A stretch of DNA of 61,674 nucleotides from Candidatus Kaiserbacteria bacterium. GTDB taxonomy: Bacteria > Patescibacteriota > Minisyncoccia > Phycocordibacterales > UBA2100. Of the stretch, positions 9,736 through 61,674 are shown in pieces (position 1 is the stretch's first letter; the number at the start of each line of letters is the position of its first letter). The position numbers and the translations under genes were made by a program. The stretch spans positions 1 through 61,674 of the forward strand of contig JACRFH010000028.1 in NCBI GenBank assembly GCA_016217975.1. Direction: 5' to 3'. The notes below the pieces were generated by a model. The model had not been told where the DNA came from. It ran no database searches and saw only the letters and a list, made by a program, of their open reading frames with translations.

Positions 9736-9758
9736 TGTCCGAGGTTCGACCTCGGACA
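9736..9758. repeat. REP-B palindrome copy 1 (TGTCCGAGG-TTCGA-CCTCGGACA)
   Basis: Perfect 9-bp arms with a 5-nt loop, 33 nt after the rpsA stop and 38 nt before the RAYT ATG. Confidence 0.9.
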
Positions 9759-9795
9759 CCGTGAGTGTCAGTTTGTGGTGTAGTATAATTTGGCA

Positions 9796-10443
9796 ATGAC
9801 GCGACAAATCGAGTTTGCGAGCGATGAGTTGTATCACATCTACAATCGCGGTACCGAGAAGCGCATTGTATTTCTTTCCCGCTGGGATTACGACCGCTTC
9901 CTGACGCTCCTTTATCTTTGCAATCAGGAGGAGCGAATAGACGAGCGTCTCAACAGGCATACTTTGGCGCAAGCATTGGAGTTGCCCCAAGGTTCACCGC
10001 TTGTGAATATCGTTGCCTATTGCCTGATGCCCAATCACTTCCATCTTGTGCTGCGCGAAATCAGCGGGAGCGGTATAAGTCGATACATGCAGAAGGTCAT
10101 CACGGGCTACACCATGTATTTCAATAAAAAGTATGATCGAAGTGGTGTCTTATTTCAGGGGAAATTCAAAGCGGCTCATGCAAAGGATGATCGTTACCTC
10201 CAATACCTCATGGCATATGTACATCTGAACCCGACTACACTGACTAACGTATTTGAGAAAGACAAACTCTCATCTACGGTACGATCATTAAAACAATATC
10301 GATATTCGAGCTATCTGGACTATATAGGCACAAAGCGTCCGGAAAACAAATTGGTAGACATGTACGCGCTACCTGGATATCTTTCAGGCCCAAAACATTT
10401 CAAGAAACATATCAAAGAGTGGCTCGATCTGAAACTGGATTAA
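9796..10443 (+). CDS. REP-associated tyrosine transposase (RAYT, IS200/IS605 TnpA-like HUH Y1 enzyme)
   Basis: HUH motif in CLMPNHFHLVL and catalytic Tyr motif in LMAYVHLNP, about 215 aa. A TATAAT box at 9784..9789 lies only 6 nt before the ATG. Confidence 0.8.
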   Translation: MTRQIEFASDELYHIYNRGTEKRIVFLSRWDYDRFLTLLYLCNQEERIDERLNRHTLAQALELPQGSPLVNIVAYCLMPNHFHLVLREISGSGISRYMQKVITGYTMYFNKKYDRSGVLFQGKFKAAHAKDDRYLQYLMAYVHLNPTTLTNVFEKDKLSSTVRSLKQYRYSSYLDYIGTKRPENKLVDMYALPGYLSGPKHFKKHIKEWLDLKLD

Positions 10444-10450
10444 CTCAAAA

Positions 10451-10473
10451 TGTCCGAGGTCGGACCTCGGACA
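10451..10473. repeat. REP-B palindrome copy 2 (TGTCCGAGG-TCGGA-CCTCGGACA)
   Basis: Same 9-bp arms as copy 1 with a variant loop, 8 nt after the RAYT stop. Confidence 0.9.
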
Positions 10474-12204: not shown

Positions 12205-13398
12205 ATGATACGTATACGCGATACGCGACACTCTTCGACGGCAAGCCTCTTGGGGGACGCAGTGCAGATTGCCGAGTACTACGGTTTTGTTCCGCTCGAG
12301 AGTCTCGAACGAAACGAAACACTCACGAGAAAACCACCGGCGACTGCTGAAATCGAAGAACAACTCAACTTCGCCAGGCGCGATGAGCGTACACTCCCCT
12401 CGATCGCGCGCCGAATCGCACTTTCGACGCGAAAAATCGGAAACGCGATTTTTGCGTGGCGCGTTGTGCAATCCGGTGTCTCACTTCCGGGCGTCTCTCT
12501 TGAGCTTCACGTAATCGGACACGCTTCGGCCATGGCCGAAGCGCTTCTCATCGTCGTCGGAAATGCGATTGCCGAAGCCGCGGGCCTTGCAACGCGCGTA
12601 CTTTCCATCAACAACATTGGCTCAAGCGAATCATCCGGCAGATACGTGCGCGATGTAAGCGCCTACTTGCGCAAACACATCGAATCGATCTCGCCGACGC
12701 TGCGCCCGCGTGCAGCGCACGATCCGATCGGCACTTTAGTGCAGCTTATCGAGCGCGGGCACCCCGCGATCTCGCGCGCACCGCAAGCGATGGAATATCT
12801 CACTGAAGACGAGCGCAAACGTTTCTGGGAATTTCTTGAATATCTCGAAGTGTTTGGCCTGCCGTATGAATTGAGCGGGCATGTCCTCGGGAGCCGCGAT
12901 GTGTGGTCAAATTCTCTCTATGAAATTTCAACGGTCGATATGGAGACACAGGCACGCATTCCGTTTGCCTTTGGCGGCCGCTATGATCCGGTGATGAGCA
13001 GATTTGCCAGGCAGCCGGAGAGCGCGGCGATGATAGGCATCACTGTGGAGAGTCGGGGCGGCGTACGCCCTAAAAAGGCGGCGCGCTCAACTCCTGGGAT
13101 CTTTTTTGCGCATCTGGGGATGGAAGCGAGGCGGCGTGCGCTTTCGGTGATGGAGAACTTACGGCGTTCTGAAATACCCGTGCACCAATCGCTTACCTAC
13201 GAGCGCCTCGGCGATCAGATGGCCACGGCGCGCGCGCTCGCAGTACCCTATATATTGATCATGGGACACAAAGAGGCCGTTGAGAACGCAATACTGGTAC
13301 GCGAAGTCGCCACCAATTCACAAGAGCAAGTGCCGCTTGACGATCTCGCCAATTATCTGAAGCGCCGCCGCATGGGAAGCCGCGAAATCCACGCGTAA
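12205..13398 (+). CDS. Histidyl-tRNA-synthetase-like protein with degenerate catalytic motifs
   Basis: GGRYD box (AFGGRYDPV) and a C-terminal HGTP-type anticodon-binding-like domain (PYILIMGHKEAVENAILVREV). I could not find the motif-2 RxE/GRxREF pattern. Confidence 0.5.
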   Translation: MIRIRDTRHSSTASLLGDAVQIAEYYGFVPLESLERNETLTRKPPATAEIEEQLNFARRDERTLPSIARRIALSTRKIGNAIFAWRVVQSGVSLPGVSLELHVIGHASAMAEALLIVVGNAIAEAAGLATRVLSINNIGSSESSGRYVRDVSAYLRKHIESISPTLRPRAAHDPIGTLVQLIERGHPAISRAPQAMEYLTEDERKRFWEFLEYLEVFGLPYELSGHVLGSRDVWSNSLYEISTVDMETQARIPFAFGGRYDPVMSRFARQPESAAMIGITVESRGGVRPKKAARSTPGIFFAHLGMEARRRALSVMENLRRSEIPVHQSLTYERLGDQMATARALAVPYILIMGHKEAVENAILVREVATNSQEQVPLDDLANYLKRRRMGSREIHA

Positions 13399-16863: not shown

Positions 16864-17787
16864 ATGTATGATCTGATTATTGTCGGAGGAGGCCCTGCGG
16901 GCGCAGCTGCTGCGGTGTACGCGGCGCGCAAACAATTGAAGACCGTACTCATCGTCCAAGAGTGGGGCGGGCAGAGCAACGTCTCGGCCGACATTCACAA
17001 CTGGATCGGAACGCCATCGATATCCGGTGCTGATCTCGCTAAGGCGTTGAAAGGACATTCGGAAAAACACGTTGGTGACTATCTTACGATCAAATCTCCT
17101 GCGATGGCAACGGGCCTCTTTGCGGCAAACGACAAGGTATCGGTGACAACAAATAAGGGAGAAATACTTGAAGCAAAGGCACTTTTAATCGCATCGGGAA
17201 GCAGCCGCCGCAAACTCGATGTGCCGGGAGCAGCCGAGTATGACCAAAAGGGCCTCACCTATTGTGCGTCATGCGACGGCCCGCTTTTTGCTGGCCAAGA
17301 TGTGGCGGTCGTGGGCGGCGGTAACGCCGGGTTTGAATCAGCGCTCCAACTCCTCGCCTATTGCAAGACCGTCTATCTCTTGAATCGTACCGAGGCTTTC
17401 AGGGCCGATGAAATAACGGTCGCGGCCGCAAAAGCACATCCAAATATGCGCATTATTATGAATGCGGTACCGGCGGCCGTGGAAGGTGCGCAATTTGTGT
17501 CAGGCCTCCGATATAAGGATGCACACACAGATGAAGAAAAGAAACTCGACGTAACCGGTATTTTCGTCGAGATAGGACTACTGCCTAATACCGGATGGCT
17601 CGGAGAGACCGTAAAATTGAACGCGATCAAACAAGTGGTAACGGACCCGATGACCCAGCGCACCTCGCACCCACGCATCTGGGCCGCGGGCGATTGCACC
17701 GACGGCCTCTATCATCAAAACAACATCGCCGCGGGTGACGCCGTGAAAGCACTCGAGGATATTTATATGACTCTCAAGAGGTCGTGA
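16864..17787 (+). CDS. trxB: Thioredoxin-disulfide reductase
   Basis: FAD motif DLIIVGGGPAGAAAAVYAARK, redox CASCDG, and NADPH motif VAVVGGGNAG. Start moved to MYDLII. Confidence 0.9.
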   Translation: MYDLIIVGGGPAGAAAAVYAARKQLKTVLIVQEWGGQSNVSADIHNWIGTPSISGADLAKALKGHSEKHVGDYLTIKSPAMATGLFAANDKVSVTTNKGEILEAKALLIASGSSRRKLDVPGAAEYDQKGLTYCASCDGPLFAGQDVAVVGGGNAGFESALQLLAYCKTVYLLNRTEAFRADEITVAAAKAHPNMRIIMNAVPAAVEGAQFVSGLRYKDAHTDEEKKLDVTGIFVEIGLLPNTGWLGETVKLNAIKQVVTDPMTQRTSHPRIWAAGDCTDGLYHQNNIAAGDAVKALEDIYMTLKRS

Positions 17788-19744
17788 TGCCAAGACTTTT
17801 GAGTTTCTCGAGGTAGCGCAAAACGGCATGCACATAGGCGGCGTGACTCCAGGTGAGGGGTGCGGCAGATATCTGCGCACCCGTATGAGGATCCAACTGC
17901 TCGGAGAGCACGCCCGAGGGCTGTGCGTGCTTCGCGGTCCAAGTAAAAATATCTCGTACCTTCTCCAAATCTGCGTCGCTCTTTGCGCGAGCTATTAAGT
18001 ATCGCGCATACCAAAGCGTCGTCATGATCCACGGATTACCCGCCGATTCCCTATCTCGACGATAATAATTGTCCCCTTCATACCGAGCAAGTCCACCAAC
18101 AGATATGCCGAGAGAGAGACGCCTGACGCTTATCTCAAACGCACGAATAAGTCGCTCGTCATCCGGTGGCAGGATTTCAAATGCATATATCCCATATGCA
18201 CTCGATATGTCCAGCGTCTTGTCTTTCGTTATAGTCTCTCCTTCTCTGTCAATGTGCTTTATAAAGTAGCCTTCTTTCTCGTCCCATAAATTTGCGAGAA
18301 TGCCGTCACGCACTTCTTCTGCGGCAGAGCGATACCGCTCCTCGTTATTCTTCTTGTTGATGATGTTCGACAGCTCTGCTGCCGCGCTCAAGGCCCCGTA
18401 TACGACAGATGCGGTGAATGTCGAGCTGCCGCGCTTTTCTTCCCATACATCGTACGAAGAAAGAGGAAGCCCGGTCGTGGGATCACGATACGAGACGAGA
18501 AAATCCGCCGCTTTCTCGATGAGCGACGTGTACAAACTTTCTATCATTTCGACATCATGGCTGTGCGTGTAGTGATTATGGAGCGCGCACAACACAAGCG
18601 CGGTTTCATCTTCTTGAATGGGCAATTCCGAATGGCCATTCCTGATCCATGGATGCCACGAACTCCCGAGAGAGCGATCGGGAAGATATTTGTGCATAAA
18701 GTAACCATCCTTGGATATTGTCTCCTTGCAAAAATCAAAAAAACGCGACGCCGTCTCGGTGTCTCCCACCTGACCGAGCGCCATCGCCGCATAGGCAGCA
18801 TCGCGTGGCCAAACATATGAATAGGTATCGAGTCCGTATTGCAACATGTCGGAATCTAAGGATGCAATAATGCCCCCGCCGCGATCTACGTGAGCGCGCA
18901 CATACATAAGGCTTTTCTTGAAAAGCGCGATATGCGCAGGCTGCAATCCATGGAAACCGTGCGATCTTGAATCGAGCCACGTCTTCCAATACGCGGCAGT
19001 GGTCATCAGAAGATTCTCCGGCGTCTCTTTCTTGAGATAGCTGTCCAACTCGCACGCATCGGGAATACTCTCGGCCGCTACTATCCAATACTCGACCGTT
19101 CGCGATTGCTGCGGCGCATACTGCTCATAAAATCCGACGGTTGAATCCGCCGGTCCATGCTCAATAGGATTCTTGCTCAATTGCCCATCTTCTGCATCCT
19201 TGTGCGTGCCCTCATGCCCGGCGAAATTAGCAAGGCCCGTCGCATAATCCTGAAATGGTGCGCCATCTATCGTGCCGCCGATGAGAAAAACCCTGCGGCC
19301 TTTGTAGTGCACGATCGAATGACTTTCCGGATCGTAGTACGCGGTATCTCCCCCGTGTGATTTGTAGATTTCAAATTGGTGACCGACATACAGTTTTATT
19401 TCTCTACCTCGTGCTCCGTCGTTTCTGATCGTGATATGTCGAAGAAATATGGCATGATCGTGGCATACGGCATCGGCAAATTCGAGTGACACCTGGAGCC
19501 TCGGATGAAGCGCGTGGATGCGACTTATGAGCGCCTCTTCCTCGCATCCCACGCGTATCTGCCAATTTCTATCGTGTGAGAGCCAGCTCATTTCACCATC
19601 GACCCAAATGCCAACGCGGTGGACGTAGTGCCCCCGCACATGATCCTCAAGCCCCACATGCGGATAATAAATATCGCGCACGGCAGCCTTGTCATCAAGC
19701 GCTACGCACAATTCGCCGTTGGAAAGAACAATCGAGCGGGACAT
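17774..19744 (-). CDS. Glycoside hydrolase family 15 (glucoamylase/glucodextranase-like)
   Basis: 656 aa with an N-terminal beta-sandwich and an (alpha/alpha)6 domain. Contains YSYVWPRDAAYAAMAL and SEQLDPHTG. Confidence 0.8.
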   Translation of the reverse strand: MSRSIVLSNGELCVALDDKAAVRDIYYPHVGLEDHVRGHYVHRVGIWVDGEMSWLSHDRNWQIRVGCEEEALISRIHALHPRLQVSLEFADAVCHDHAIFLRHITIRNDGARGREIKLYVGHQFEIYKSHGGDTAYYDPESHSIVHYKGRRVFLIGGTIDGAPFQDYATGLANFAGHEGTHKDAEDGQLSKNPIEHGPADSTVGFYEQYAPQQSRTVEYWIVAAESIPDACELDSYLKKETPENLLMTTAAYWKTWLDSRSHGFHGLQPAHIALFKKSLMYVRAHVDRGGGIIASLDSDMLQYGLDTYSYVWPRDAAYAAMALGQVGDTETASRFFDFCKETISKDGYFMHKYLPDRSLGSSWHPWIRNGHSELPIQEDETALVLCALHNHYTHSHDVEMIESLYTSLIEKAADFLVSYRDPTTGLPLSSYDVWEEKRGSSTFTASVVYGALSAAAELSNIINKKNNEERYRSAAEEVRDGILANLWDEKEGYFIKHIDREGETITKDKTLDISSAYGIYAFEILPPDDERLIRAFEISVRRLSLGISVGGLARYEGDNYYRRDRESAGNPWIMTTLWYARYLIARAKSDADLEKVRDIFTWTAKHAQPSGVLSEQLDPHTGAQISAAPLTWSHAAYVHAVLRYLEKLKSLGITTS

Positions 19745-19746
19745 AG

Positions 19747-20055
19747 ATGAAAATAGTATACACTAGTGCGATGCAGCATTTTCGCTCTCCATATGGATCA
19801 ATATTGCTCACAGACGAGCGCAAGCGGCATATCCTTGAATTTCATCCTGAAGTGAGAATGTATCTGCGATACTTCGTAGATACTCTCGCGAAGCCTGAAT
19901 ATGAAAGTCGTTCCGTGCACGATGCCGCGGTCGTCATTTGCTACCAATATATACCGCGACGAAAGCGATATCTGGCGATCGTCGTAAAGACGGGGACGAG
20001 ACCCTTCATCCTGACCGCCTATCTTGCGAGAAAACTGAAACAAGATACACTATGA
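19747..20055 (+). CDS. Hypothetical small protein, possible toxin-like partner of the downstream DUF2283-like gene
   Basis: 102 aa. Its stop overlaps the next start (ATGA at 20052..20055). No catalytic motif recognised. Confidence 0.35.
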   Translation: MKIVYTSAMQHFRSPYGSILLTDERKRHILEFHPEVRMYLRYFVDTLAKPEYESRSVHDAAVVICYQYIPRRKRYLAIVVKTGTRPFILTAYLARKLKQDTL

Positions 20056-20285
20056 CCATGCTTAAGTACTTCTACGACAAAGAAGCAGATATCTTTTACT
20101 TCTCCCAGGGCACGCCAAGCGCCTTTGATCAGACCATCGAGGCTGGCGATGATGTACTCTTGCGTATAAGTCCTCGCACGAAACGCGTGCGTGGATTTAC
20201 GCTCCTCAATGCGTCGCGCAAGACGAGAAATGCTCCGACTGGAGTACCCTTCACTCTCGTCCCGAATGTCTCCGTGCGAGCTTAA
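20052..20285 (+). CDS. DUF2283-like small protein
   Basis: The N-terminus MTMLKYFYDKEADIFYFS is the pattern I associate with DUF2283 (YDKEADxLYI). Confidence 0.5.
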   Translation: MTMLKYFYDKEADIFYFSQGTPSAFDQTIEAGDDVLLRISPRTKRVRGFTLLNASRKTRNAPTGVPFTLVPNVSVRA

Positions 20286-20331
20286 GGTCTGCGCACAACT
20301 CCCCTTGGTAGAACGGCAGAACAGAAGACAC

Positions 20332-20760
20332 TTATTTCTTTTTAGGTCTTACTTTCCGAATGCCGACGATCATTGAGAGAGATATCAGGTGCCAGGCACG
20401 ACTTTCTTCTCCTGATCCCGGAGCGCCGCGAACCAGAAATCTTCCGTTATCAACCTCAACAAAAACACGGTCACCTGCGCTGCGCCAGACACGCCTCTCG
20501 AATGTCCCGGTTTTCTTGTTTATATTGGGAGCTCGTTCTTTTATGCGCAATTCGAAATTGTCGCCTGGCACTATACCTGCCACCTGAATAAGATCATCAA
20601 CGCGCGCCATATCTTGAGCGGTTTCAAGATTATAATCAGAGCGTTTTTTACCATAGCGACTGTCGAGACTATATGAATCTTTCGCCGCATCAGGGTCCAT
20701 ATGCATTCGAGTGATCTCCGAACGCGGACCGTTCTTCTCATTCTTAGGATCTGAATCCAT
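20332..20760 (-). CDS. Hypothetical protein, tightly spaced downstream of GH57
   Basis: 143 aa from MDSDPKNEK. Its ATG at 20760 lies 1 nt after the GH57 stop codon (20762..20764). Confidence 0.4.
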   Translation of the reverse strand: MDSDPKNEKNGPRSEITRMHMDPDAAKDSYSLDSRYGKKRSDYNLETAQDMARVDDLIQVAGIVPGDNFELRIKERAPNINKKTGTFERRVWRSAGDRVFVEVDNGRFLVRGAPGSGEESRAWHLISLSMIVGIRKVRPKKK

Positions 20761-20761
20761 A

Positions 20762-21958
20762 TTAGAGATTGCGCTTCTCCAGGCGCAATCTAAGATCCGA
20801 AAGGGCATTCATATATGCAATGTAGGCGTCATAGGGTGATTCATAGGGAGAAAAATAGGCATGCACGTCGCCATCGGCGAACCATTTGGTGCACATGTAA
20901 TAGAAGTGATCCGACGTCTGGAGCTTGCGCCAATCGTCCATGATCTTGTGGTCGTTGGCAAGAAGCACCGGCTCCTCAAGATCGTAGATCGCTTTGATCG
21001 CTGCTTCTTGCATTGGGTTCCCCACCCAAGCGGTAAGATCACGATCGGTGTCGGCCCAGGTGACGATGTGCGGCATGTCAATCTCGCCTTTATGATCATG
21101 CGCACGGATCACTTCCGATGGCGTCCGGAATTTAAGCTCGGGATTCTTGAAGACCTCTTCGGGGAGATGCTCGAGAAAACTGAAAATACCGGTGGCTTCC
21201 CATTGATGCTCGCCGAAAGTCTCATAATCCATAAAGAGGTTTACGGTATCGCCCTCCGTCGCGGAGAGCCACGCGCCGAATTTCTCGGCCGTGAGCGGCC
21301 ACTCGCTCCAATCGCGAGATGAAAAGCGAAATGCCACATCGTCGGAGAGTTTGTAATTCTTGAGAAGCAACTTGATTTTCGATGCGCCTGCGGGTTGGTA
21401 AACATAATTGGGACTCTTCCAGCCCAAGATTGGATCCCAACCTTCCGCCAAGATGCCGTCGTAGCCTGCCCTCTCTGCCCAAGAACCCAGGTCATTTCTG
21501 TATGAAAGTTCGGTATTGCGAAACACTCTGGGCCAGTACCCGAAGAGTCGTTGGATGAGGGAGCGGTGGTGCGACACCTGGCGCTCAAATTCGGGAAGTG
21601 AGTAGAAAAACGCGAGCGAATGATAGTACGTCTCTCCCAATACTTCGGCTTGCCCCGTATCAAGCACGGCTTTAAAGAGTGCGAGGGCATCCGGAGCATA
21701 CCGCTCAAGCTGTTCCAAGACAACTCCTGAAAATGAGAAACTCACGCGCATCTCGTGATGTTTTTTGAGCAGGTCGAGAAGCAACTGCGTCGTGGGGACG
21801 TAGGATTTGCGTGCGACCTTCTCGATGATGCGGCGATTATTGAGATCGGTGTCGGAGCGGTCGTTGAAATATTCTGGATCATTGCCGATATCAAACACGC
21901 GATAGCGCTTGACGCGATACGGCTGGTGAACTTGAAAATAAAAGCAGACTGATTTCAT
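20762..21958 (-). CDS. Glycoside hydrolase family 57 (alpha-amylase/branching-enzyme-like)
   Basis: N-terminus MKSVCFYFQVHQPYRVKRY and EHQWEATG-type segments are typical of GH57. Confidence 0.8.
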   Translation of the reverse strand: MKSVCFYFQVHQPYRVKRYRVFDIGNDPEYFNDRSDTDLNNRRIIEKVARKSYVPTTQLLLDLLKKHHEMRVSFSFSGVVLEQLERYAPDALALFKAVLDTGQAEVLGETYYHSLAFFYSLPEFERQVSHHRSLIQRLFGYWPRVFRNTELSYRNDLGSWAERAGYDGILAEGWDPILGWKSPNYVYQPAGASKIKLLLKNYKLSDDVAFRFSSRDWSEWPLTAEKFGAWLSATEGDTVNLFMDYETFGEHQWEATGIFSFLEHLPEEVFKNPELKFRTPSEVIRAHDHKGEIDMPHIVTWADTDRDLTAWVGNPMQEAAIKAIYDLEEPVLLANDHKIMDDWRKLQTSDHFYYMCTKWFADGDVHAYFSPYESPYDAYIAYMNALSDLRLRLEKRNL

Positions 21959-21965
21959 AAAAAGC

Positions 21966-21993
21966 GTATAGGGTATAGGGTATAGGGTATAGC
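21966..21993. repeat. Tandem heptamer (GTATAGG x3 plus GTATAGC)
   Basis: Four head-to-tail 7-mers begin 8 nt upstream of the GH57 ATG (21958, minus strand). Confidence 0.9.
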
Positions 21994-22045
21994 TAAACGC
22001 AAAAACGCTCGGTCGCAGGCCGTTGACATCGCATCATTATACAAC

Positions 22046-23278
22046 CTACGCGGTCAATTCATGGATAATGCTATCCACTTTTTGAGCCGCGCTCTCCCAG
22101 GTAAGGCGATCGGCTTCACGAATGCCATTCTTGGAAAGTGAACTCGAGAGCGGCGCGTGCTTGAGTGTCGAGAGAATCTTATTGGCCATCTCATCGATAT
22201 CCCAAAAATCGGCCTTGAGCGCATGGCGCACCACTTCCGATATCCCCGACTGCTTTGAAACTAATACCGGAACTCCAAGCTTCATAGCTTCAAGTGTCGA
22301 GAGACCGAAAGGCTCTGAGACGGAAGGCATCACAAAAAGATCAGCCGCCGCGTACATTTCATGACGCTCATGTCCTCCAACAAAACCCGTGAAAAGTACT
22401 TTGTCGGAGATACCGAGCCGTGCCGCGAGATCCATCACCTGTGACTCCATATCCCCAGACCCAGAAAGCACAAAAAGTACCTTATTGTTGCGCTCGCTTA
22501 CACGCTTTGCGGTGCGCACGAAATAATCAGGGCCTTTTTGAAGGGTAATTCGCCCGAGAAAAAGAACCAATTTATAGCCAGCGTGTTTGAGCTGTCGCAG
22601 ACGCGGGAGCGCGCCACTTCCTGTAGGCGCCGTCGATTCGTCGATACCATTGTGAACCACACGGATCTTTTCTGCTGGTATCCCATATTCCCGCACGATG
22701 AGATCCTTGGTGAATTGCGACACCGCAATAACGACATCCGCAGCCTGCATTCCTTCTTTTTCCAATTCGTACACCTGTTCGTTGATGCTCTCTTTATTCC
22801 ACCCCGCCTTCGCCGAGGCTTCGGCGGGCACAGCGCATCTATCAAATTCAGTCGCGTGTACATGCACGATGAGCGGCTTCCCAGTCGCTTTTTTGGCTTC
22901 GACACCAGCACCAAACGAGAGCCAATCGTGCGCATAGATGATGTCGAATTGTTCCTCAAGTGCGATCTCTCTACCTGCCTGAGCATAACGCAAGACCTCT
23001 TCCATCAAGTCAAAACCGTATACCTCTGGCCGTGCATACTTTTTGTTCCACGCATACGCTCTCACAGGCGAGTTGATGATGCGCGCCGCGATTTCCGGAA
23101 TGTCTGCAAAAACCATTTTTACCCACGGCGCTCCCACATCGAGCTTTTTCGGCATTACAAACAACACCGACGCGCCCAAGCTTGTCATGGCACGCGTGAG
23201 TCCATAGCATGCCACTCCCAACCCTCCGCTATGGTGCGGAGGAAATTCCCAACCAAACATCAAAACGCGAGTTTTCAT
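22046..23278 (-). CDS. Glycogen-synthase-like glycosyltransferase (GT-B fold, GT4/GT5 type)
   Basis: MFGWEFPPHHSGGLGVACYGL at the N-terminus. C-terminal EPFGLSTLEAM motif. Confidence 0.8.
   Translation of the reverse strand: MKTRVLMFGWEFPPHHSGGLGVACYGLTRAMTSLGASVLFVMPKKLDVGAPWVKMVFADIPEIAARIINSPVRAYAWNKKYARPEVYGFDLMEEVLRYAQAGREIALEEQFDIIYAHDWLSFGAGVEAKKATGKPLIVHVHATEFDRCAVPAEASAKAGWNKESINEQVYELEKEGMQAADVVIAVSQFTKDLIVREYGIPAEKIRVVHNGIDESTAPTGSGALPRLRQLKHAGYKLVLFLGRITLQKGPDYFVRTAKRVSERNNKVLFVLSGSGDMESQVMDLAARLGISDKVLFTGFVGGHERHEMYAAADLFVMPSVSEPFGLSTLEAMKLGVPVLVSKQSGISEVVRHALKADFWDIDEMANKILSTLKHAPLSSSLSKNGIREADRLTWESAAQKVDSIIHELTA
22803..22830. repeat. 28-nt hairpin element, copy 1 (identical to 52718..52745), in frame inside the GT gene
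   Basis: CCCGCCTTCGCCGAGGCTTCGGCGGGCA is read on the minus strand as PAEASAKAG. Confidence 0.9.
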
Positions 23279-23343
23279 GGTTTACGCAACATCTTCACGC
23301 CATTGTACCACCGGCGTGTACAAATTCTTCCGTCATGAAAAAA

Positions 23344-23366
23344 ATGGCAAGGTTCAACCTTGCCAT
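23344..23366. repeat. REP-A palindrome copy 1 (ATGGCAAGG-TTCAA-CCTTGCCAT), terminator-like
   Basis: Perfect 9-bp arms with an A-run before and a T-run after, 36 nt downstream of the minus-strand stop at 23402. Confidence 0.9.
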
Positions 23367-23401
23367 TTCGAGATCAGAGTTAGTACTCACAATGCTGCCG
23401 A

Positions 23402-23691: not shown

Positions 23692-23922
23692 TTATTCGTC
23701 GAGATTTTCAACTTGGTCAAACCAGTCACTTACTGATCCGATGACAAGATTTCCTTCGGCGCGCTTATTAAGTTTGCTCCAAAATTGACTTCGCTCATCA
23801 TCTGGCAAAGCATCAACCTGATCTTTAACGCGCTTTAACTCTCGTAACATTTCCCTTGCCTTATTCTCAAGCCCCTTAATCATGCCGTCAAAATCTGGTC
23901 CTTTCGGTGCTTCGTTCGACAT
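23692..23922 (-). CDS. Hypothetical small helical protein
   Basis: Start moved to MSNEAPKGPD. The longer ORF would read through the REP-B3 palindrome. Confidence 0.35.
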   Translation of the reverse strand: MSNEAPKGPDFDGMIKGLENKAREMLRELKRVKDQVDALPDDERSQFWSKLNKRAEGNLVIGSVSDWFDQVENLDE

Positions 23923-23999
23923 AAAGTAAAAAACTAGTCTTGTATGAGTGAATAGTTGCACATCCGTTAATTTCGTCAACTTCTCATCCGAGGTTCTTC

Positions 24000-24024
24000 G
24001 TGTCCGAGGTTCGACCTCGGACAC
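24000..24024. repeat. REP-B palindrome copy 3 (GTGTCCGAGG-TTCGA-CCTCGGACAC)
   Basis: 10-bp arms. It is preceded by a partial half-site duplication (TCCGAGGTTC at 23987..23996). Confidence 0.9.
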
Positions 24025-24129
24025 CAAGAGCTGATTTTTGTTGTGTAATATCTCAATAAACATGGACTACGAATGCTGCAGAAACTGATATACCTTTGGT
24101 GGATGTCATGTTTGTGCTAACCTCTCCTG

Positions 24130-43659: not shown

Positions 43660-43881
43660 TCCAAACGAAGATACGGATTCGAAGTGGATCCAAAACCTAG
43701 GGAAACCAGCGAAAGCTGATCGGTCTTGGATCCGCTTCGGAGCCCTACCAAAGAAAGTCCGTACAAAAGGACCTTAATCGACCGGCATCCTATATGAAGA
43801 AGTGGGGGTGTCAATTTCTTTTCGTTGCGTAGTATGACGGAGGTACGGCACAAAAATGGCAAGGTTCAACCTTGCCATTTT
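43660..43881 (+). ncRNA. Candidate ~220-nt structured ncRNA of unknown class
   Basis: Bounded by the promoter above and by the REP-A2 hairpin plus T-run. Internal helices: GGATCCAA/TTGGATCC (43685..43692 / 43725..43732), CAGC-GAAA-GCTG (43706..43717), GTCC/GGAC, and a closing CCTCC/GGAGG (43657..43661 / 43838..43842). No convincing ORF. Confidence 0.35.
43855..43877. repeat. REP-A palindrome copy 2, bidirectional terminator
   Basis: AAAAATGGCAAGGTTCAACCTTGCCATTTTT, 29 nt downstream of the minus-strand stop at 43906. Confidence 0.9.
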
Positions 43882-43905
43882 TGTGCGGTTAGTTCGTAAT
43901 ATATT

Positions 43906-52063: not shown

Positions 52064-52103
52064 ATATATCTCTCCTTGCGCGGCCGCGCAAGGAGAGATA
52101 TAT
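52064..52103. repeat. Perfect 40-bp palindrome without loop (centre GCGGCCGC)
   Basis: ATATATCTCTCCTTGCGCGG|CCGCGCAAGGAGAGATATAT. It lies 8 nt from REP-A3. Confidence 0.95.
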
Positions 52104-52110
52104 GTTAAAA

Positions 52111-52133
52111 ATGGCAAGGTTCGACCTTGCCAT
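52111..52133. repeat. REP-A palindrome copy 3 (loop variant TTCGA), terminator-like
   Basis: AAAAATGGCAAGGTTCGACCTTGCCATTTT, 70 nt downstream of the minus-strand stop at 52204. Confidence 0.9.
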
Positions 52134-52203
52134 TTTCACGGCGTGCATTGCTGTTTTTAGGTATATCTCTAGCCTCCGCGGCCGCATCAGCTAGCGATAT
52201 ATA

Positions 52204-53277
52204 TCAAAACGCCTCGGCTGCTGAAGCCGTGATTGCGCTCGGATCCACTGTGGGCCGCGTGAAGATGAAATTGTCGGCTGTTGCAAATAGAGTGCCCATG
52301 AGGACAAAAAGCGCGCCCGCGGCGATTGCTTTGCCGCGGTGATGCCACCTCAATTCAAGCCCGGTCGCAAGTGCAAATATCGCCGCGAGGAGGAGCGCCA
52401 CGAAATAATATGCGTATTGCAAAAGCGAGCGCGGCGAACCGAACATGTGCGCCCAGAATGATGCGTATCGCGGCGCAGGAGCGGACTGGACTCCAGATTG
52501 CGCGCTCTGCGGTTGTCCTGCGGTGGAATCAAGCACGGTTGCAGGCGAGGGCGAAGCAGCAAGTACATCTTTTTGAGAAACTTCTTTTCCGGTGAGCGGT
52601 GCGGGCGCCAGCTGATCGGCTGGCTGCGTGCTTGCACCGAGCACAACCGTCCCTGTTGCAGTGGTTGCAAGCGCTGGCTCGGCGGGATTTTGCGGCGTGA
52701 TCTCATGGGTCGGCGCACCCGCCTTCGCCGAGGCTTCGGCGGGCAAGCCAAATTCCTGCACGACAAATGTCGTCGAGCGGCCCTCATAGAAGCCTTGCGC
52801 AACCGCGATCCCGATTTCGGTAAAATGCGGATCAAGAATATTTTCGCGATGCGTGCGCGAATTCATCCATGCATTATTTACATCCGTCGAATCGCTAAAA
52901 TCTACCGCCAGATTCTCCCCCGCATATTTGTATCTATACCCAGCTTCCTCAAACCAGTGCCATGGATCGACACCCTCCGGCGAAATATGTGCAAAGTAGC
53001 TCTTAGCTGCCATGTCGTTGGCCTTGGCTTGTGCCGCAGCAACCAAAAGAGGATTGAGAGTCAGCGTCGAGACGTTGTTGACATTGCGATCGTTGTTGGC
53101 CATGTCAACCAAGACCGCGGCCATGACCGATGCGTACTGAGCAGTGCCAATAAGATATTTATCGAGCGAGGTGGCAACAAAGATCACGATAGTGAGCGCC
53201 GCGACGGAAAGCCCTGCCGCGCCTACGAGCTCAAATTCTCGCCAAGACAGTTTCTTGTCTTTATGATTCTTCACCAT
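52204..53277 (-). CDS. Membrane-anchored CAP/SCP (PR-1-like, YkwD-type) domain protein
   Basis: N-terminal helix. CAP core AKANDMAAKSYFAHISPEGVDPWHWF...YAGENLA...AWMNSRTHRENILDP. Low-complexity linker and C-terminal helices. Confidence 0.75.
   Translation of the reverse strand: MVKNHKDKKLSWREFELVGAAGLSVAALTIVIFVATSLDKYLIGTAQYASVMAAVLVDMANNDRNVNNVSTLTLNPLLVAAAQAKANDMAAKSYFAHISPEGVDPWHWFEEAGYRYKYAGENLAVDFSDSTDVNNAWMNSRTHRENILDPHFTEIGIAVAQGFYEGRSTTFVVQEFGLPAEASAKAGAPTHEITPQNPAEPALATTATGTVVLGASTQPADQLAPAPLTGKEVSQKDVLAASPSPATVLDSTAGQPQSAQSGVQSAPAPRYASFWAHMFGSPRSLLQYAYYFVALLLAAIFALATGLELRWHHRGKAIAAGALFVLMGTLFATADNFIFTRPTVDPSAITASAAEAF
52718..52745. repeat. 28-nt hairpin element, copy 2 (identical to 22803..22830), in frame inside the CAP-domain gene
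   Basis: The same 28 nt are again read on the minus strand as PAEASAKAG. Confidence 0.9.
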
Positions 53278-55146: not shown

Positions 55147-56820
55147 ATGATATTGCGAGATCGAATAGCCGCTCTTATCAAGGGCGACGTACTGGATGAT
55201 GCGTTTACGCGGGCGAAATACAGTCGTGACACGAGTATTTTTGAGCGCTCTCCCAAAGTCGTCGTGTTCCCCAAAAATGCGGATGATGTTTCCGCGCTCG
55301 TAAAATTCGTGAATGACGCGCGAGACCACGGAGAGAATCTCTCTGTCACCGCACGATCCGCCGGTACCGATATGACCGGCGGACCTCTCACCGATTCAAT
55401 CTCTGTCGTCTTCACGAAATATATGAATCACATAATTGATATTGGGCCTGATCCCGACGCAAAGGACGGGACAGGTTATGCTGTTGCCGAGCCTGGTGTG
55501 TATTACCGCGATCTCGAAAAAGAGTCGCTAGCTAAATACGGCACTATATATCCGGCGTATCCCGCGTCGCGTGATCTCTGCGCGATCGGCGGCATTGTGT
55601 CTAATAATTCTGCGGGTGAATTGAATCTCCGTTACGGTAAGACTGATAGACACGTACGCGAGCTCGACGTTGTTCTTTCAGATGGTTCGCATGCGCAGAT
55701 TCAACCGATTTCGTTAAACGAACTTGCCGCCAAAGAAAAAGAAGCAACATTTGAAGGACGCCTCTACAAACAGATTCATGCGCTCATTGATGAGAACCGC
55801 GAGGAGATTGAGAAAGCCCGACCCACCGTCACCAAAAATTCTGCAGGATACGGTTTGTGGAATGTGATTGACGAAAAAAAGGGCATATTCGATCTTAATC
55901 AGCTGATCGTCGGAAGCCAAGGCACGCTTGCCTTTGTCACCCGCGCCAAGCTCGAAATGGTGAAGACAAAACCACATCGTGCTATGCTCGTCGTTTTCCT
56001 TGCGGATCTCCACATACTGCCCGAGATAGTGACTCGCGTGCTCGCCTTCGATCCCGAATCATTTGAATCATATGACGACAAGACCTTTTCTCTCGCGGTA
56101 CGCCTCATGCCGCGAATGCTTTCGCACATGGGCCCATATGCGGCGCTCAAACTCGGACTCGCCTTCATCCCGGATATTTGGACTGTAATCCGGGGAGGTG
56201 TTCCGAAACTGATTCTACTTGCTGAATTCGCCGAAGATTCGGGAGATGAAGCGGTCGAGAAAGCGCGAATGGCGAGACACTCGCTCGAGGGTCTCGCGGT
56301 CTCGACTCGCATTGCAAAAAGCGAGGCACAGTCGGCCAAGTACTGGAAAGTGCGACGAGAGAGCTTCGCGCTCCTGCGCAAGAATTTCCATGGCCGGTAT
56401 GCGGCACCCTTTATCGACGACATTGTCGTACACGTCGAGGACTACCCTAAATTCCTGCCCGAGCTCGAAAATCTGGTCCGCGGACATCGGTTCATCTACA
56501 CAATCGCTGGGCACATCGGCGATGGCAATTTTCACATCATTCCGCTTGTAAAAATGAACGGCGAAGCGGATCGCAAAGAAATGCTCGAACTCATGCCCAA
56601 AGTCTATGCACTTGTAGGGAAATACAGGGGCTCGATTACCGGCGAGCACAACGACGGCATCATTCGCACCCCGTACTTGCCCACGATGTTTAGCCCTCGT
56701 ATGATCGAGCTTTTCGCGCAGATAAAACACATCTTCGACCCCCTAGGTGTCTTCAATCCGGGAAAAAAGACGGGCGGGACCTTTGCCGATATCGAACGCA
56801 GTATGATCAAGAAAATATGA
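55147..56820 (+). CDS. FAD-linked oxidase/dehydrogenase (GlcD / D-lactate dehydrogenase-like)
   Basis: FAD_binding_4-like N-terminus (VVFPKNADDVSALVKFVN...VTARSAGTDMTGG). C-terminal GEHNDGIIR and IFDPLGVFNPGK. Confidence 0.8.
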   Translation: MILRDRIAALIKGDVLDDAFTRAKYSRDTSIFERSPKVVVFPKNADDVSALVKFVNDARDHGENLSVTARSAGTDMTGGPLTDSISVVFTKYMNHIIDIGPDPDAKDGTGYAVAEPGVYYRDLEKESLAKYGTIYPAYPASRDLCAIGGIVSNNSAGELNLRYGKTDRHVRELDVVLSDGSHAQIQPISLNELAAKEKEATFEGRLYKQIHALIDENREEIEKARPTVTKNSAGYGLWNVIDEKKGIFDLNQLIVGSQGTLAFVTRAKLEMVKTKPHRAMLVVFLADLHILPEIVTRVLAFDPESFESYDDKTFSLAVRLMPRMLSHMGPYAALKLGLAFIPDIWTVIRGGVPKLILLAEFAEDSGDEAVEKARMARHSLEGLAVSTRIAKSEAQSAKYWKVRRESFALLRKNFHGRYAAPFIDDIVVHVEDYPKFLPELENLVRGHRFIYTIAGHIGDGNFHIIPLVKMNGEADRKEMLELMPKVYALVGKYRGSITGEHNDGIIRTPYLPTMFSPRMIELFAQIKHIFDPLGVFNPGKKTGGTFADIERSMIKKI

Positions 56821-57860
56821 CTCGATTCCTCCGCTATATTCCATATTCGATATTCCTCATCCCTTTCAGTGCTTCCGCGCACGAGGTGTACGTCCTCGAC
56901 TCAGCCGCCATCATGCGCGATATCGTAAATCCCTCGCCAAATCCCCTCGCGCTCATTTTGCAAGACCCGCAACAATTCCTCTTCTGGGCTCTCATAGGCG
57001 CAATACTCATCTCGACTGTTTTTACGATGTCAATTACGCACCGCGTGCAGGATACGTTTTCACCATTTCTCATGCGCCTCAAGCCCTGGGCAGCGCCAAT
57101 TGCCCGCGTTACGCTCGGCGCATGCCTCATCGCGAGTGCATATAATAATGCGCTCTTCGGGCCAGAGCTTCCGTTTTCTGATTTCGGCACCTTTGGAAGA
57201 ATGATCCAGATCACGCTCTATATAAGCGGCATCTTGAGTCTTGTTGGACTTTGGACGCGCGCCGCAGGCTCTCTCGCGCTCTTGATATTTGCCGCTGGAA
57301 TCGCGAAATACAACATCTACATGTTCACCTACGCCAATTACCTCGGCGAGATATTCTTTGCGATGATCCTTGGAAGCGGACGATTCTCTCTTGATCACTG
57401 GCTGAACCTCCCAAAGATGGCAAGGTTCAACCTTGCCATCTTTGCCAAACTCGGACGGCGATTGGAACCGTACGCATTTCCCGTTTTGCGTATCCTTTTC
57501 GGAATCTCAATCGCATTCGCTTCGTACTATGCCAAATTTGTACACAGTCAACTCGCGCTCGACGTCGTCACCAAGTATCACCTTACCAACTTCTTCCATT
57601 TCGACCCTCTCTTTATTGTCCTCGGCGCATTCTGCGTGGAACTTTTGATCGGACTATTCTTGATACTCGGCGTCGAGATTCGCCATACTGCCCTTTTCTT
57701 CCTATTCTGGCTCGCCCTTTCGCTCCTCTATTTCGGCGAGGCCGTCTGGCCGCACCTTGTGCTCGTGGGCGTCCTCCTCGCGCTCTTTTGCCACGGCTAC
57801 GACAAACTCTCCTTAGAAGGCTACTACTTCAAACGAGGGTCCCGTGAGCCTGTGTTATGA
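56817..57860 (+). CDS. Polytopic membrane protein, two DoxX-like halves joined by a linker that contains a REP-A palindrome
   Basis: 347 aa with helices on both sides of residue ~200. The linker LNLPKMARFNLAIFAKLG is encoded by the palindrome at 57413..57443. The DoxX assignment is tentative. Confidence 0.5.
   Translation: MTRFLRYIPYSIFLIPFSASAHEVYVLDSAAIMRDIVNPSPNPLALILQDPQQFLFWALIGAILISTVFTMSITHRVQDTFSPFLMRLKPWAAPIARVTLGACLIASAYNNALFGPELPFSDFGTFGRMIQITLYISGILSLVGLWTRAAGSLALLIFAAGIAKYNIYMFTYANYLGEIFFAMILGSGRFSLDHWLNLPKMARFNLAIFAKLGRRLEPYAFPVLRILFGISIAFASYYAKFVHSQLALDVVTKYHLTNFFHFDPLFIVLGAFCVELLIGLFLILGVEIRHTALFFLFWLALSLLYFGEAVWPHLVLVGVLLALFCHGYDKLSLEGYYFKRGSREPVL
57413..57443. repeat. REP-A palindrome copy 4 with 13-bp arms, in frame inside a CDS
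   Basis: AAAGATGGCAAGG-TTCAA-CCTTGCCATCTTT. It has no flanking A5/T5 runs, unlike copies 1-3. Confidence 0.9.
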
Positions 57861-61534: not shown

Positions 61535-61674
61535 ACTGTGAATAACGAAACCCCCTAAACGTGGGCTTTTCAAGGCATGCAAAAACTCCTCCAGCGAGGT
61601 TTTGAAAGCGAACACAGATTGTCACCTTGAAGCACGAATAATTTCTTTCAACTGGTTAGGCAAGCACGAACGAG
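61535..61674. repeat. Right arm of the perfect 140-nt terminal inverted repeat
   Basis: Identical to the reverse complement of 1..140. It starts 80 nt after the stop of the 554-aa gene. Confidence 0.97.

Follow-up and report, generated by a model that had tools for sequence, protein, structure and literature searches.

Introduction

Rickettsia palindromic elements (RPEs) were reportedly described by Ogata et al. in 2000, and one of them, RPE-1, measures about 100–150 bp and occurs only in Rickettsia. Yeast mitochondrial genomes carry mobile GC clusters and so-called 'byp' elements, which are short GC-rich hairpin inserts, byps being skipped by the ribosome. Nunvar in 2010, Bertels and Rainey in 2011 and Ton-Hoang in 2012 are said to have dealt with REPIN/RAYT and IS200/IS605 systems and their single-strand 'peel and paste' transposition; pairs of a repetitive extragenic palindrome (REP) and its REP-associated tyrosine transposase (RAYT) are usually lineage-specific. 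In REPs a tetranucleotide tag and a hairpin are recognised and cut as single-stranded DNA by RAYT transposases of the Y1/HUH kind (PMC3733652). CGTC REPs are defined by a CGTC (or TGTC/CCTC) tag, an 8–9-bp stem opening with A/T pairs, a 4–5-nt loop and a CCA tail, and RPE-4 and RPE-6 have been equated with them (PMC3733652). Intragenic and translated GTAG/CGTC REPs are known from bacteria such as Opitutus, Thauera and Xanthomonas (Di Nocera, De Gregorio & Rocco 2013, BMC Genomics 14:522, PMC3733652). Here we describe a GC-rich hairpin of 30–31 nt that occurs twice in contig JACRFH010000028.1 of a Candidatus Kaiserbacteria bacterium (assembly GCA_016217975.1), once within a glycosyltransferase (GT) gene and once within a gene for a CAP-domain protein. 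The whole contig of 61,674 nt was analysed and is called the window below. We consider it rather probable that the two copies represent a small, non-autonomous, REP-like mobile DNA hairpin.

Results

An identical hairpin in two unrelated genes

The 28-mer CCCGCCTTCGCCGAGGCTTCGGCGGGCA matched the plus strand of the window at 22803–22830 and at 52718–52745 with 0 mismatches, and these are the only two exact copies. No third copy was found in the window at up to 3 mismatches, and 0/100 dinucleotide shuffles contained any match. The sequences flanking the two copies show no relation to each other. G+C content is ~75% for the element and ~52% for the window. Both copies are located inside long minus-strand open reading frames (ORFs) and are read in the same frame, giving the peptide PAEASAKAG in the contexts DRCAVPAEASAKAGWNKE and EFGLPAEASAKAGAPTHE.

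On the mRNA strand copy 1 reads 5'-CTGTG-C-CCGCC-GAA-GCC-TC-GGC-GAA-GGCGG-G-3' and encodes (A)VPAEASAKAG, while copy 2 reads 5'-CTTG-C-CCGCC-GAA-GCC-TC-GGC-GAA-GGCGG-G-3' and encodes LPAEASAKAG. In mRNA sense each folds into a hairpin whose 6-bp GC stem leads through a GAA/GAA internal loop to a short inner stem closed by a small loop, with −22.5 and −26.9 kcal/mol in windows of 44 nt. The opposite strand, folded as RNA, reached −14.3 and −20.8 kcal/mol and is thus less stable than the strand with the 5' tag and the GAA/GAA loops. A search of the window against Rfam at the gathering threshold matched only two tRNAs, and the element region gave noise only. An earlier note on this DNA, made from the letters alone, had described the identical 28-mer with unrelated flanks, its common frame in two minus-strand ORFs and the GC-stem hairpin with its GAA/GAA internal loop, and in all of this it was borne out. 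The extent of 28 nt that it gave to the element holds for the exactly shared part, but the units run slightly further, to 31 nt and 30 nt.

Distribution across bacteria and phages

We scanned one genome per GTDB species for a 24-nt core of the element, CCGCCTTCGCCGAGGCTTCGGCGG. The exact core was found in at least 119 genome stretches, where by our own estimate ~0.004–0.1 occurrences of a 24-mer would be expected by chance in 596 Gb. Hosts among the matches listed include Bradyrhizobium isolates (Pseudomonadota), Burkholderiaceae, Acidobacteriota (many of them Vicinamibacterales), Planctomycetota, Verrucomicrobiota, Bacteroidota, Myxococcota, Methylomirabilota, Omnitrophota, Saccharibacteria, Paceibacterota and other Patescibacteria. 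The core is present in isolate genomes as well as in long-read metagenome-assembled genomes (MAGs), at loci with a G+C content from 0.35 to 0.72, and the exact core also occurs in 13 viral contigs of IMG/VR. Many copies are intergenic. Both 28-mers of the window almost certainly belong to this dispersed family.

In a plasmid collection megablast found nothing and blastn only weak partial matches. Literature searches by nucleotide words and by the encoded peptides found no description of the sequence, and a search on the candidate phyla radiation (CPR) together with palindromic repeats found nothing relevant. The remark of the earlier note that it knew of no description of such behaviour for CPR-like genomes stands insofar as no description for CPR genomes was found in the literature; the same core, however, also occurs in many other phyla and in phage contigs.

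Nesting was seen in three independent cases (L080, L059/L065 and L011), each of them an exact insertion of 30 nt into a host copy at GCT(T)^CGGCGG. The unit was also seen in company with other repeats. In the Bradyrhizobium isolates L014, L032, L048, L054, L061 and L075 a REP with a CGTC tag has the 30-mer in its loop, CGTCATTGCGAGCGCAGCGAC-unit-AAGCAATCCAG. A second hairpin, ACCGCCGTAGCTTTAGCGGAGGCTGG, comes after the 30-mer in Vicinamibacterales, and in Rhizomicrobium the 30-mer forms part of a longer repeated unit. Since the unit sits within the REP loop in Bradyrhizobium (CGTCATTGCGAGCG...GCAATCCAG), we regard it as a separate module.

Anatomy and conserved structure of the unit

Flank statistics were drawn from 120–130 copies with an exact core. 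The core is preceded by T or C and followed by A or G, and these −1/+1 positions pair in 88% of copies. Positions +2 to +5 after the core follow a CARG consensus (CYTG when read on the opposite strand). This gives a unit made up of a 26-nt hairpin and a 4–5-nt tag (CYTG) on the hairpin's 5' side, 30–31 nt in total. Its consensus on the strand carrying CYTG is 5'-CYTG-Y-CCGCC-GAA-GCC-YC-GGC-GAA-GGCGG-R-3', in which an unpaired 3x3 internal loop separates a 6-bp GC stem from a 3-bp inner stem that ends in a 2-nt loop. The internal loop is GAA/GAA on one strand and TTC/TTC on the other, the tag preceding the hairpin on the GAA/GAA strand. In the window the tags are CTTG in the CAP copy, which is a canonical 30-nt unit, and CTGTG (5 nt) in the GT copy. 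Neither a longer stem including the flanks nor a 'guide' pairing of the tail with the target was supported, −1/+1 being the sole flank pair.

Variants of the outer stem close to the exact matches are compensatory (CCTCC/GGAGG, CGGCC/GGCCG, CAGCC/GGCTG and CCGAC/GTCGG), and in the inner stem GCCGAGGC changes to GCTGAAGC. In the internal loop the three facing bases also vary among copies, yet they remain unpaired. A scan of viral sequences keyed on the centre TTCGCCRAGGCTTCGG alone gave 124 matches, 42 of them with a perfect 6-bp outer stem; these stems comprise at least 12 sequence types and are mostly followed by CARG. For a covariation test 106 distinct matches were aligned, with background matches kept, and the symmetric fold was scored. 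Double-change cells numbered 81, compared with 40.9 ± 6 in shuffles, and 0/500 shuffles reached 81. The covariation score of the symmetric fold was 0.206 as against 0.118 after shuffling (0/500) and lay above every slid control. We hold with high confidence that the hairpin is the conserved unit.

Two other structures were considered and rejected. The DNA minimum-free-energy fold (ViennaRNA, DNA parameters), a shifted 6-bp stem with a tetraloop, had a covariation score of only 0.090, with one pair broken in 66/106 matches. A motif resembling the archaeal bulge-helix-bulge of introns was dismissed by inspection, since the two 3-nt loops face each other and are not staggered.

The glycosyltransferase copy

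The 120 best homologs of the window GT were aligned with MAFFT. About 114 of them read HATEFDR[CS]-GG-x-x-G-[VI]-N and thus lack an insert, while the window GT reads HATEFDRC-AVPAEASAKAG-WNKES-IN, with the insert following the invariant HATEFDR. All family-invariant residues are kept, and the nearly invariant Gly-Gly is cut to one Gly. The short form is found in the two nearest relatives, P0026 (with 79% identity outside the site) and P0002, their empty-site DNA being GAT CGA TGC GGC GGT CCA and GAT CGT TCG GGC GGA GCG, respectively. Against the empty sites of the nearest relatives (L248, L249, L135 and L136) the insertion point of copy 1 is TGCG^GCGG. We conclude that the GT copy is very likely a true insertion, in agreement with the earlier note, which had called it inserted in frame.

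One homolog, P0018, has AVPSEASAKEGRLP at the same place, encoded by TGC GCT GTG CCC TCC GAA GCC TCG GCG AAG GAG GGG. Tag and junction are identical to those of the window copy, and the stem differs by one compensated pair, G:C to T:A. The P0018 protein is 68% identical to the window GT. P0036, the relative closest to P0018 at 84% identity, has an empty site that reads TGC GGC GGG CCG. Both filled alleles have the form TGCG^[31 nt]^GCGG. The way in which the frame is restored differs: L121 keeps GGCGGT together with two extra bases (31 + 2 = 33), whereas the window lacks about seven bases (31 − 7 = 24). From these junctions we infer that two separate 31-nt insertions may have hit the same nucleotide, with a different indel restoring the frame in each case. 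One old insertion followed by many precise losses is a conceivable alternative.

In two further homologs, P0080 (L137, 754–1971) and P0084 (L138, 10001–11236), another hairpin of 27 nt, CTGTCTGCGTGSGGCGCACAGGCAG, of the form CTGTCTGCGTG(G/C)GGCGCACAGGCAG, is found at the same Gly-Gly codons and encodes LSAWGAQAG or LSACGAQAD. The presence of this other hairpin at the same codons marks the loop as a recurrent landing or survival site.

An AlphaFold2 model of the window GT (69 homologs) had a mean predicted local distance difference test (pLDDT) score of 84, with the inserted residues 147–154 below 50 and placed between well-predicted elements, which is consistent with the loop between conserved GT-B elements proposed in the earlier note. 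Foldseek top matches of the model were Pyrococcus abyssi glycogen synthase, GlgM, MshA and BshA. A metagenome scan for the filled or the empty allele of the window GT site gave 0 matches. The gene order GT, GH57, GH15 (alpha-glucan metabolism; 17774–23278 in the window) is common to the window and the related Patescibacteria contigs L136 and L138, and FtsZ comes after GH15 in this conserved order. Together with the best protein matches, the gene order assigns the contig to Paceibacteria/Parcubacteria.

The CAP-protein copy

The CAP protein has a long low-complexity linker and a C-terminal hydrophobic region. Its Pfam CAP domain spans residues 58–176, and the element covers approximately residues 179–188, in the linker just past the domain. 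With the 30-nt unit removed the protein reads EFG-APTHEITPQNP and is nine residues shorter than the closest ortholog P0122 and shorter than every other homolog. P0122 (82% identity) reads EFG-APSSESLAR-APTQEIVPENP. Its extra 27 nt form a hairpin of the same layout, and their alignment to the unit in reverse orientation scored 26, a value reached in 8/5000 shuffles. The CAP copy thus replaces part of a variable linker and is no clean addition of nine residues. The replacement could stem from insertion and deletion between GCGCC repeats, from conversion or from hairpin inversion. The claim of the earlier note that PAEASAKAG had been added in both genes thus stands for the GT, but for the CAP gene the homologs point to linker replacement.

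Family members are present at this CAP linker in other lineages as well. P0125 reads LPAEALAQAG (judged by its protein only), and in P0189 a perfect unit, CCCTCC...GGAGGGCAAG, lies one codon further along and faces the opposite way. In the homolog L247 the junction is clean, ACG^CCC, with no target duplication.

Copies within genes of other genomes

For intragenic copies we surveyed loci of up to 58% G+C with stop-free frames of at least 250 codons, which yielded 17 copies. Nine of these long-ORF copies are read as [PS]AEASAKAG, six as PAFAEASAG[KR] and two in Arg-rich frames; the ORFs of the latter two are probably spurious. Intragenic copies occur in both orientations with respect to transcription, 9 vs 6. 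Seven host ORFs were checked with Pfam and all proved to be real genes, with most units between domains or at their edges (Table 1). In the TrpRS gene of L074, from a Paceibacterota MAG of 35% G+C, the unit is a clean 30-nt insertion, GGC^unit^TAT, between a Gly and a Tyr codon of a TrpRS motif and without target duplication. A survival filter would predict the shared frame of the two window copies, which gives no evidence for a common peptide origin.

L108 and L025 contain two inverted units ~30–60 nt apart within one ORF, ALPAEASAKAAQ...QPAYAEASAGKR, resembling a REPIN-like doublet. In L051 a CCTGCC...GGCAGG hairpin lies beside the 30-mer.

Table 1. Hairpin units, their host genes and the candidate mobiliser in the window, and host ORFs of units in other genomes
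Feature	Position in window	Strand	Basis or remark
Hairpin unit copy 1	22803..22833	-	31 nt; exact repeat and fold; within the glycosyltransferase gene
Hairpin unit copy 2	52718..52747	-	30 nt; exact repeat; tag and length fit the family consensus
Host gene 1, GT-B glycosyltransferase (GT4/GT5-like, glycogen-synthase-like)	22046..23278	-	Pfam and NCBIfam; Glycos_transf_1, Glyco_transf_4, Glyco_transf_5
Host gene 2, CAP/YkwD-domain protein	52204..53277	-	Pfam CAP and NCBIfam YkwD; homolog alignment
Y1 (HUH) transposase-like ORF, candidate trans-acting mobiliser	9790..10443	+	Pfam Y1_Tnp 31.8 bits (cut-off 23)
L015, Lnt			unit between LNT_N and CN_hydrolase
L051, GNAT/FemAB-like			unit C-terminal, past the domain
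L070, ABC ATPase			unit just ahead of the signature motif
L074, TrpRS/TyrRS			unit at the end of the catalytic domain
L081, PheRS-beta			unit between B5 and FDX-ACB
L108, E1 dehydrogenase			linker; two units in inverted orientation
L084, PutA			unit between Pro_dh and Aldedh

Other hairpins and repeats in the window

The window starts and ends with a perfect 140-nt inverted repeat (1–140 and 61535–61674). As 140 equals k − 1 for k = 141, the assembly graph may have produced it at a place where the genome has an inverted repeat, in which case it would be no genuine terminal repeat. Hairpins of the form TGTCCGAGGT(T)CGACCTCGGACA are located around the Y1 ORF (9736–9758 and 10451–10473), and a third one at 24000–24024 upstream of ORF 23692–24063; each is followed by a TATAAT-like box after ~25–30 nt. 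These three hairpins may be terminator-promoter cassettes or the genome's own REP family. Four copies of AAAATGGCAAGGTTCRACCTTGCCATTTT (23342–23368, 43848–43886, 52108–52136 and 57412–57444) have A- and T-runs on either side and look like bidirectional terminators. They have the loop GGTTCRACC in common with the Y1-flanking hairpins, the stems differing in a complementary way. A perfect 40-nt palindrome, ATATATCTCTCCTTGCGCGG joined to CCGCGCAAGGAGAGATATAT, is situated at 52064–52103 between the CAP gene and a lipase-like gene. Two GC-rich palindromes within long ORFs, CGCTTCGGCCATGGCCGAAGCG (12522–12543, ORF 12205–13398) and TCCGCCGGTACCGATATGACCGGCGGA (55357–55383, ORF 55147–56820), may be other intragenic hairpin inserts.

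Discussion

Origin and spread of the hairpin

The architecture of the unit is REP-like, because it joins a tag to a hairpin, shows no target duplication and has intragenic copies. If it is mobile, copies would insert without target duplication, and those landing in genes would survive only where the change in length is, or gets repaired to, a multiple of three. Survival would also need a frame giving a flexible peptide rich in Ala, Ser, Glu and Lys (PAEASAKAG or PAFAEASAGK) in a loop or an inter-domain linker. One copy would have entered the GT gene at TGCG^GCGG, in the Gly-Gly loop past HATEFDR, and the other would occupy the linker past the CAP domain. To the host proteins the copies are likely neutral passengers. 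By analogy with described systems, transfer as single-stranded DNA by an HUH/Y1 transposase (RAYT- or IS200-like) supplied in trans is a mechanism that we propose tentatively; repair- or replication-templated copying has a smaller share, and the remainder falls to another activity, possibly phage-borne. For the candidate ORF in the window (Table 1) the best NCBIfam match was the REP-associated tyrosine transposase with 40 bits, under the cut-off of 80, and on the contig of one CAP homolog a weak Y1_Tnp gene adjoins. Preferences of the insertion targets are weak: TGCG^GCGG and GCT(T)^CGGCGG recur, yet GGC^TAT was also used.

A number of observations speak against a mobile hairpin or against a Y1/RAYT mobiliser in particular. 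The Y1 ORF of the window is bracketed by the TGTCCGAGGT(T)CGACCTCGGACA hairpins and not by the 30-mer, and a phmmer search with its protein found no homolog among all ORFs in the 8-kb neighbourhoods of 130 copies. The orientation of copies relative to local GC skew (8-kb windows, a test of low power) was 61:51 with p = 0.4. The tag is neither GTAG nor CGTC, and a centre that is nearly identical across phyla is unusual for REP/RAYT pairs. Copy numbers look low beside the tens to hundreds per genome typical of REPs, with 2 in the 61.7-kb window and 1–5 in other genomes when exact cores only are counted. The two GT copies share the atypical 5-nt tag and an identical junction, which could mean a shared history and not independent events, and the CAP copy, as described above, is a replacement. 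The idea that the unit had evolved to be stop-free in all six frames was also abandoned, as this is ordinary for the composition: stop codons are likewise absent from 30% of shuffles matched in composition and from 83% of random palindromes.

Spread could instead do without a dedicated transposase, through template switching, through gene conversion from one hairpin to another or through hairpin DNA captured at breaks, guided by GC-rich microhomologies such as GGCGG. Such copying would fit the recurrent sites, which resemble the element's own arm (TGCG^GCGG, and GCT(T)^CGGCGG for all nested copies), as well as the CAP copy, which takes the place of a diverged and oppositely oriented family member in the closest ortholog, as conversion or hairpin inversion would do. 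The lack of a Y1 homolog near the 130 copies and the lack of a strand bias in the low-power test point the same way. However, the boundaries of the unit are sharp and constant even at unrelated sites without microhomology (GGC^TAT in TrpRS, ACG^CCC in the CAP homolog L247), the conserved asymmetric tag and the unpaired internal loop suggest recognition by a protein, and spread across phyla would require an incoming donor copy for each genome. We regard copying without a transposase as rather unlikely. Less probable still is retention of the hairpin for a function, be it as a structural signal in RNA or DNA (mRNA stability, pausing, a protein-binding site) or as a selected flexible linker module. 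Stem covariation and a centre strongly conserved across phyla would be expected of a functional structure, the same loop or linker was hit repeatedly in the GT and CAP families, and effects of REPs on mRNA stability and termination are known (PMC3733652). Covariation among dispersed copies is equally expected, however, if a mobiliser recognises the hairpin. Intragenic copies face both ways relative to transcription, host genes are unrelated and many copies lie outside genes, the nearest orthologs manage without the element, and no Rfam family matches. A selected function is thus disfavoured and unnecessary to explain the data.

It is highly improbable that the repeat reflects an ancestral motif of the proteins, convergence by chance or an artefact of assembly or contamination. 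The CAP linker is variable, with loosely similar Ala/Ser-rich sequence in some homologs, and the terminal inverted repeat of the contig is odd. Identity, however, is at the nucleotide level and unmatched in shuffles, about 114/120 GT homologs lack the element, and the core is found in isolates and long-read MAGs and in frame within conserved genes of unrelated taxa, by which this explanation is effectively refuted.

A 30-nt hairpin preserved nearly verbatim from Bradyrhizobium to Patescibacteria and phages points to a mobilising activity that is probably widespread. As mobile DNA of this small size it would remodel proteins. The loops and linkers in which PAEASAKAG and PAFAEASAGK are found belong to a tRNA synthetase, PutA, Lnt, an ABC ATPase and glycosyltransferases, with repeated hits on the same permissive sites in separate lineages. 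The motif accounts for odd Ala-rich insertions and for many spurious Arg-rich small ORFs in MAG annotations, and it could mark recent exchange of DNA.

Comparison with known repeat families

Like the RPEs, the element is a palindromic repeat lying in frame within unrelated genes, where its translation adds a surface peptide that permissive sites can tolerate. The sequences are not related, and the element differs by its 30–31-nt unit, its other tag and its presence in many phyla. The RPE-like behaviour suggested in the earlier note is supported by the GT insertion, the compensatory stems and the low-confidence segment of the AlphaFold2 model, but it is known beyond Rickettsia from the intragenic GTAG/CGTC REPs (PMC3733652).

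Yeast GC clusters and byps are likewise GC-rich, hairpin-forming mobile inserts in protein genes of a lower-GC genome. They belong to eukaryotic organelles and have unrelated sequences, and here plain in-frame translation suffices. A miniature inverted-repeat transposable element derived from a DDE transposase would be expected to have terminal inverted repeats and to leave a target-site duplication, whereas the junctions of L074 (GGC^TAT), L247 (ACG^CCC) and the nested copies are clean.

Features shared with REPIN/RAYT and IS200/IS605 systems are a hairpin with an adjacent short tag as recognition unit, insertion without target-site duplication, the inverted doublet seen in L108 and a RAYT-like gene in the window. 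Excision could be precise, and this would account for a presence that is patchy among the GT and CAP orthologs. Our element differs in being a single hairpin without distinct left and right ends, in showing no strand bias in the low-power test and in its sequence conservation across phyla. A REPtron, that is a RAYT flanked by the same REPs, was not seen in the window or in the 8-kb neighbourhoods of the copies, as no RAYT there is flanked by the 30-mer.

The closest resemblance is to REPs as characterised in PMC3733652: a GC-rich imperfect palindrome of 20–40 nt with a conserved tetranucleotide tag at one end, a stem kept by complementary changes, nesting in or association with other repeats, a mostly intergenic location with some copies translated inside known genes, and some families in distant taxa. 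A 26-nt palindrome dispersed over at least 119 genome stretches and viral contigs, with a covarying stem, fits REPs in the generic sense by its form and dispersal. It is no GTAG REP, since in the 120–130 copies CARG follows the hairpin on the 3' side, equal to CYTG, and no CGTC REP, since it has a 6-bp G/C stem, the 3x3 internal loop, a 3-bp inner stem, a 2-nt loop and no CCA tail. From REPs in general it is set apart by the conserved 3x3 loop, the fixed 30-nt unit, the exact core across phyla and phage contigs and the large share of intragenic copies in low-GC genomes. In-frame palindromic repeats are already known, then, while for the CYTG tag and the distribution across phyla no description was found in the literature. 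Speculatively, the element might represent a third superfamily of tagged palindromic repeats (CYTG) that crosses phyla, likely with the help of phages, and owes its mobility to a function broadly conserved in hosts or phages and not to a lineage-specific RAYT. Such a superfamily would also give rise, time and again, to linker insertions of 10 residues in the housekeeping proteins of bacteria, including genome-reduced Patescibacteria.

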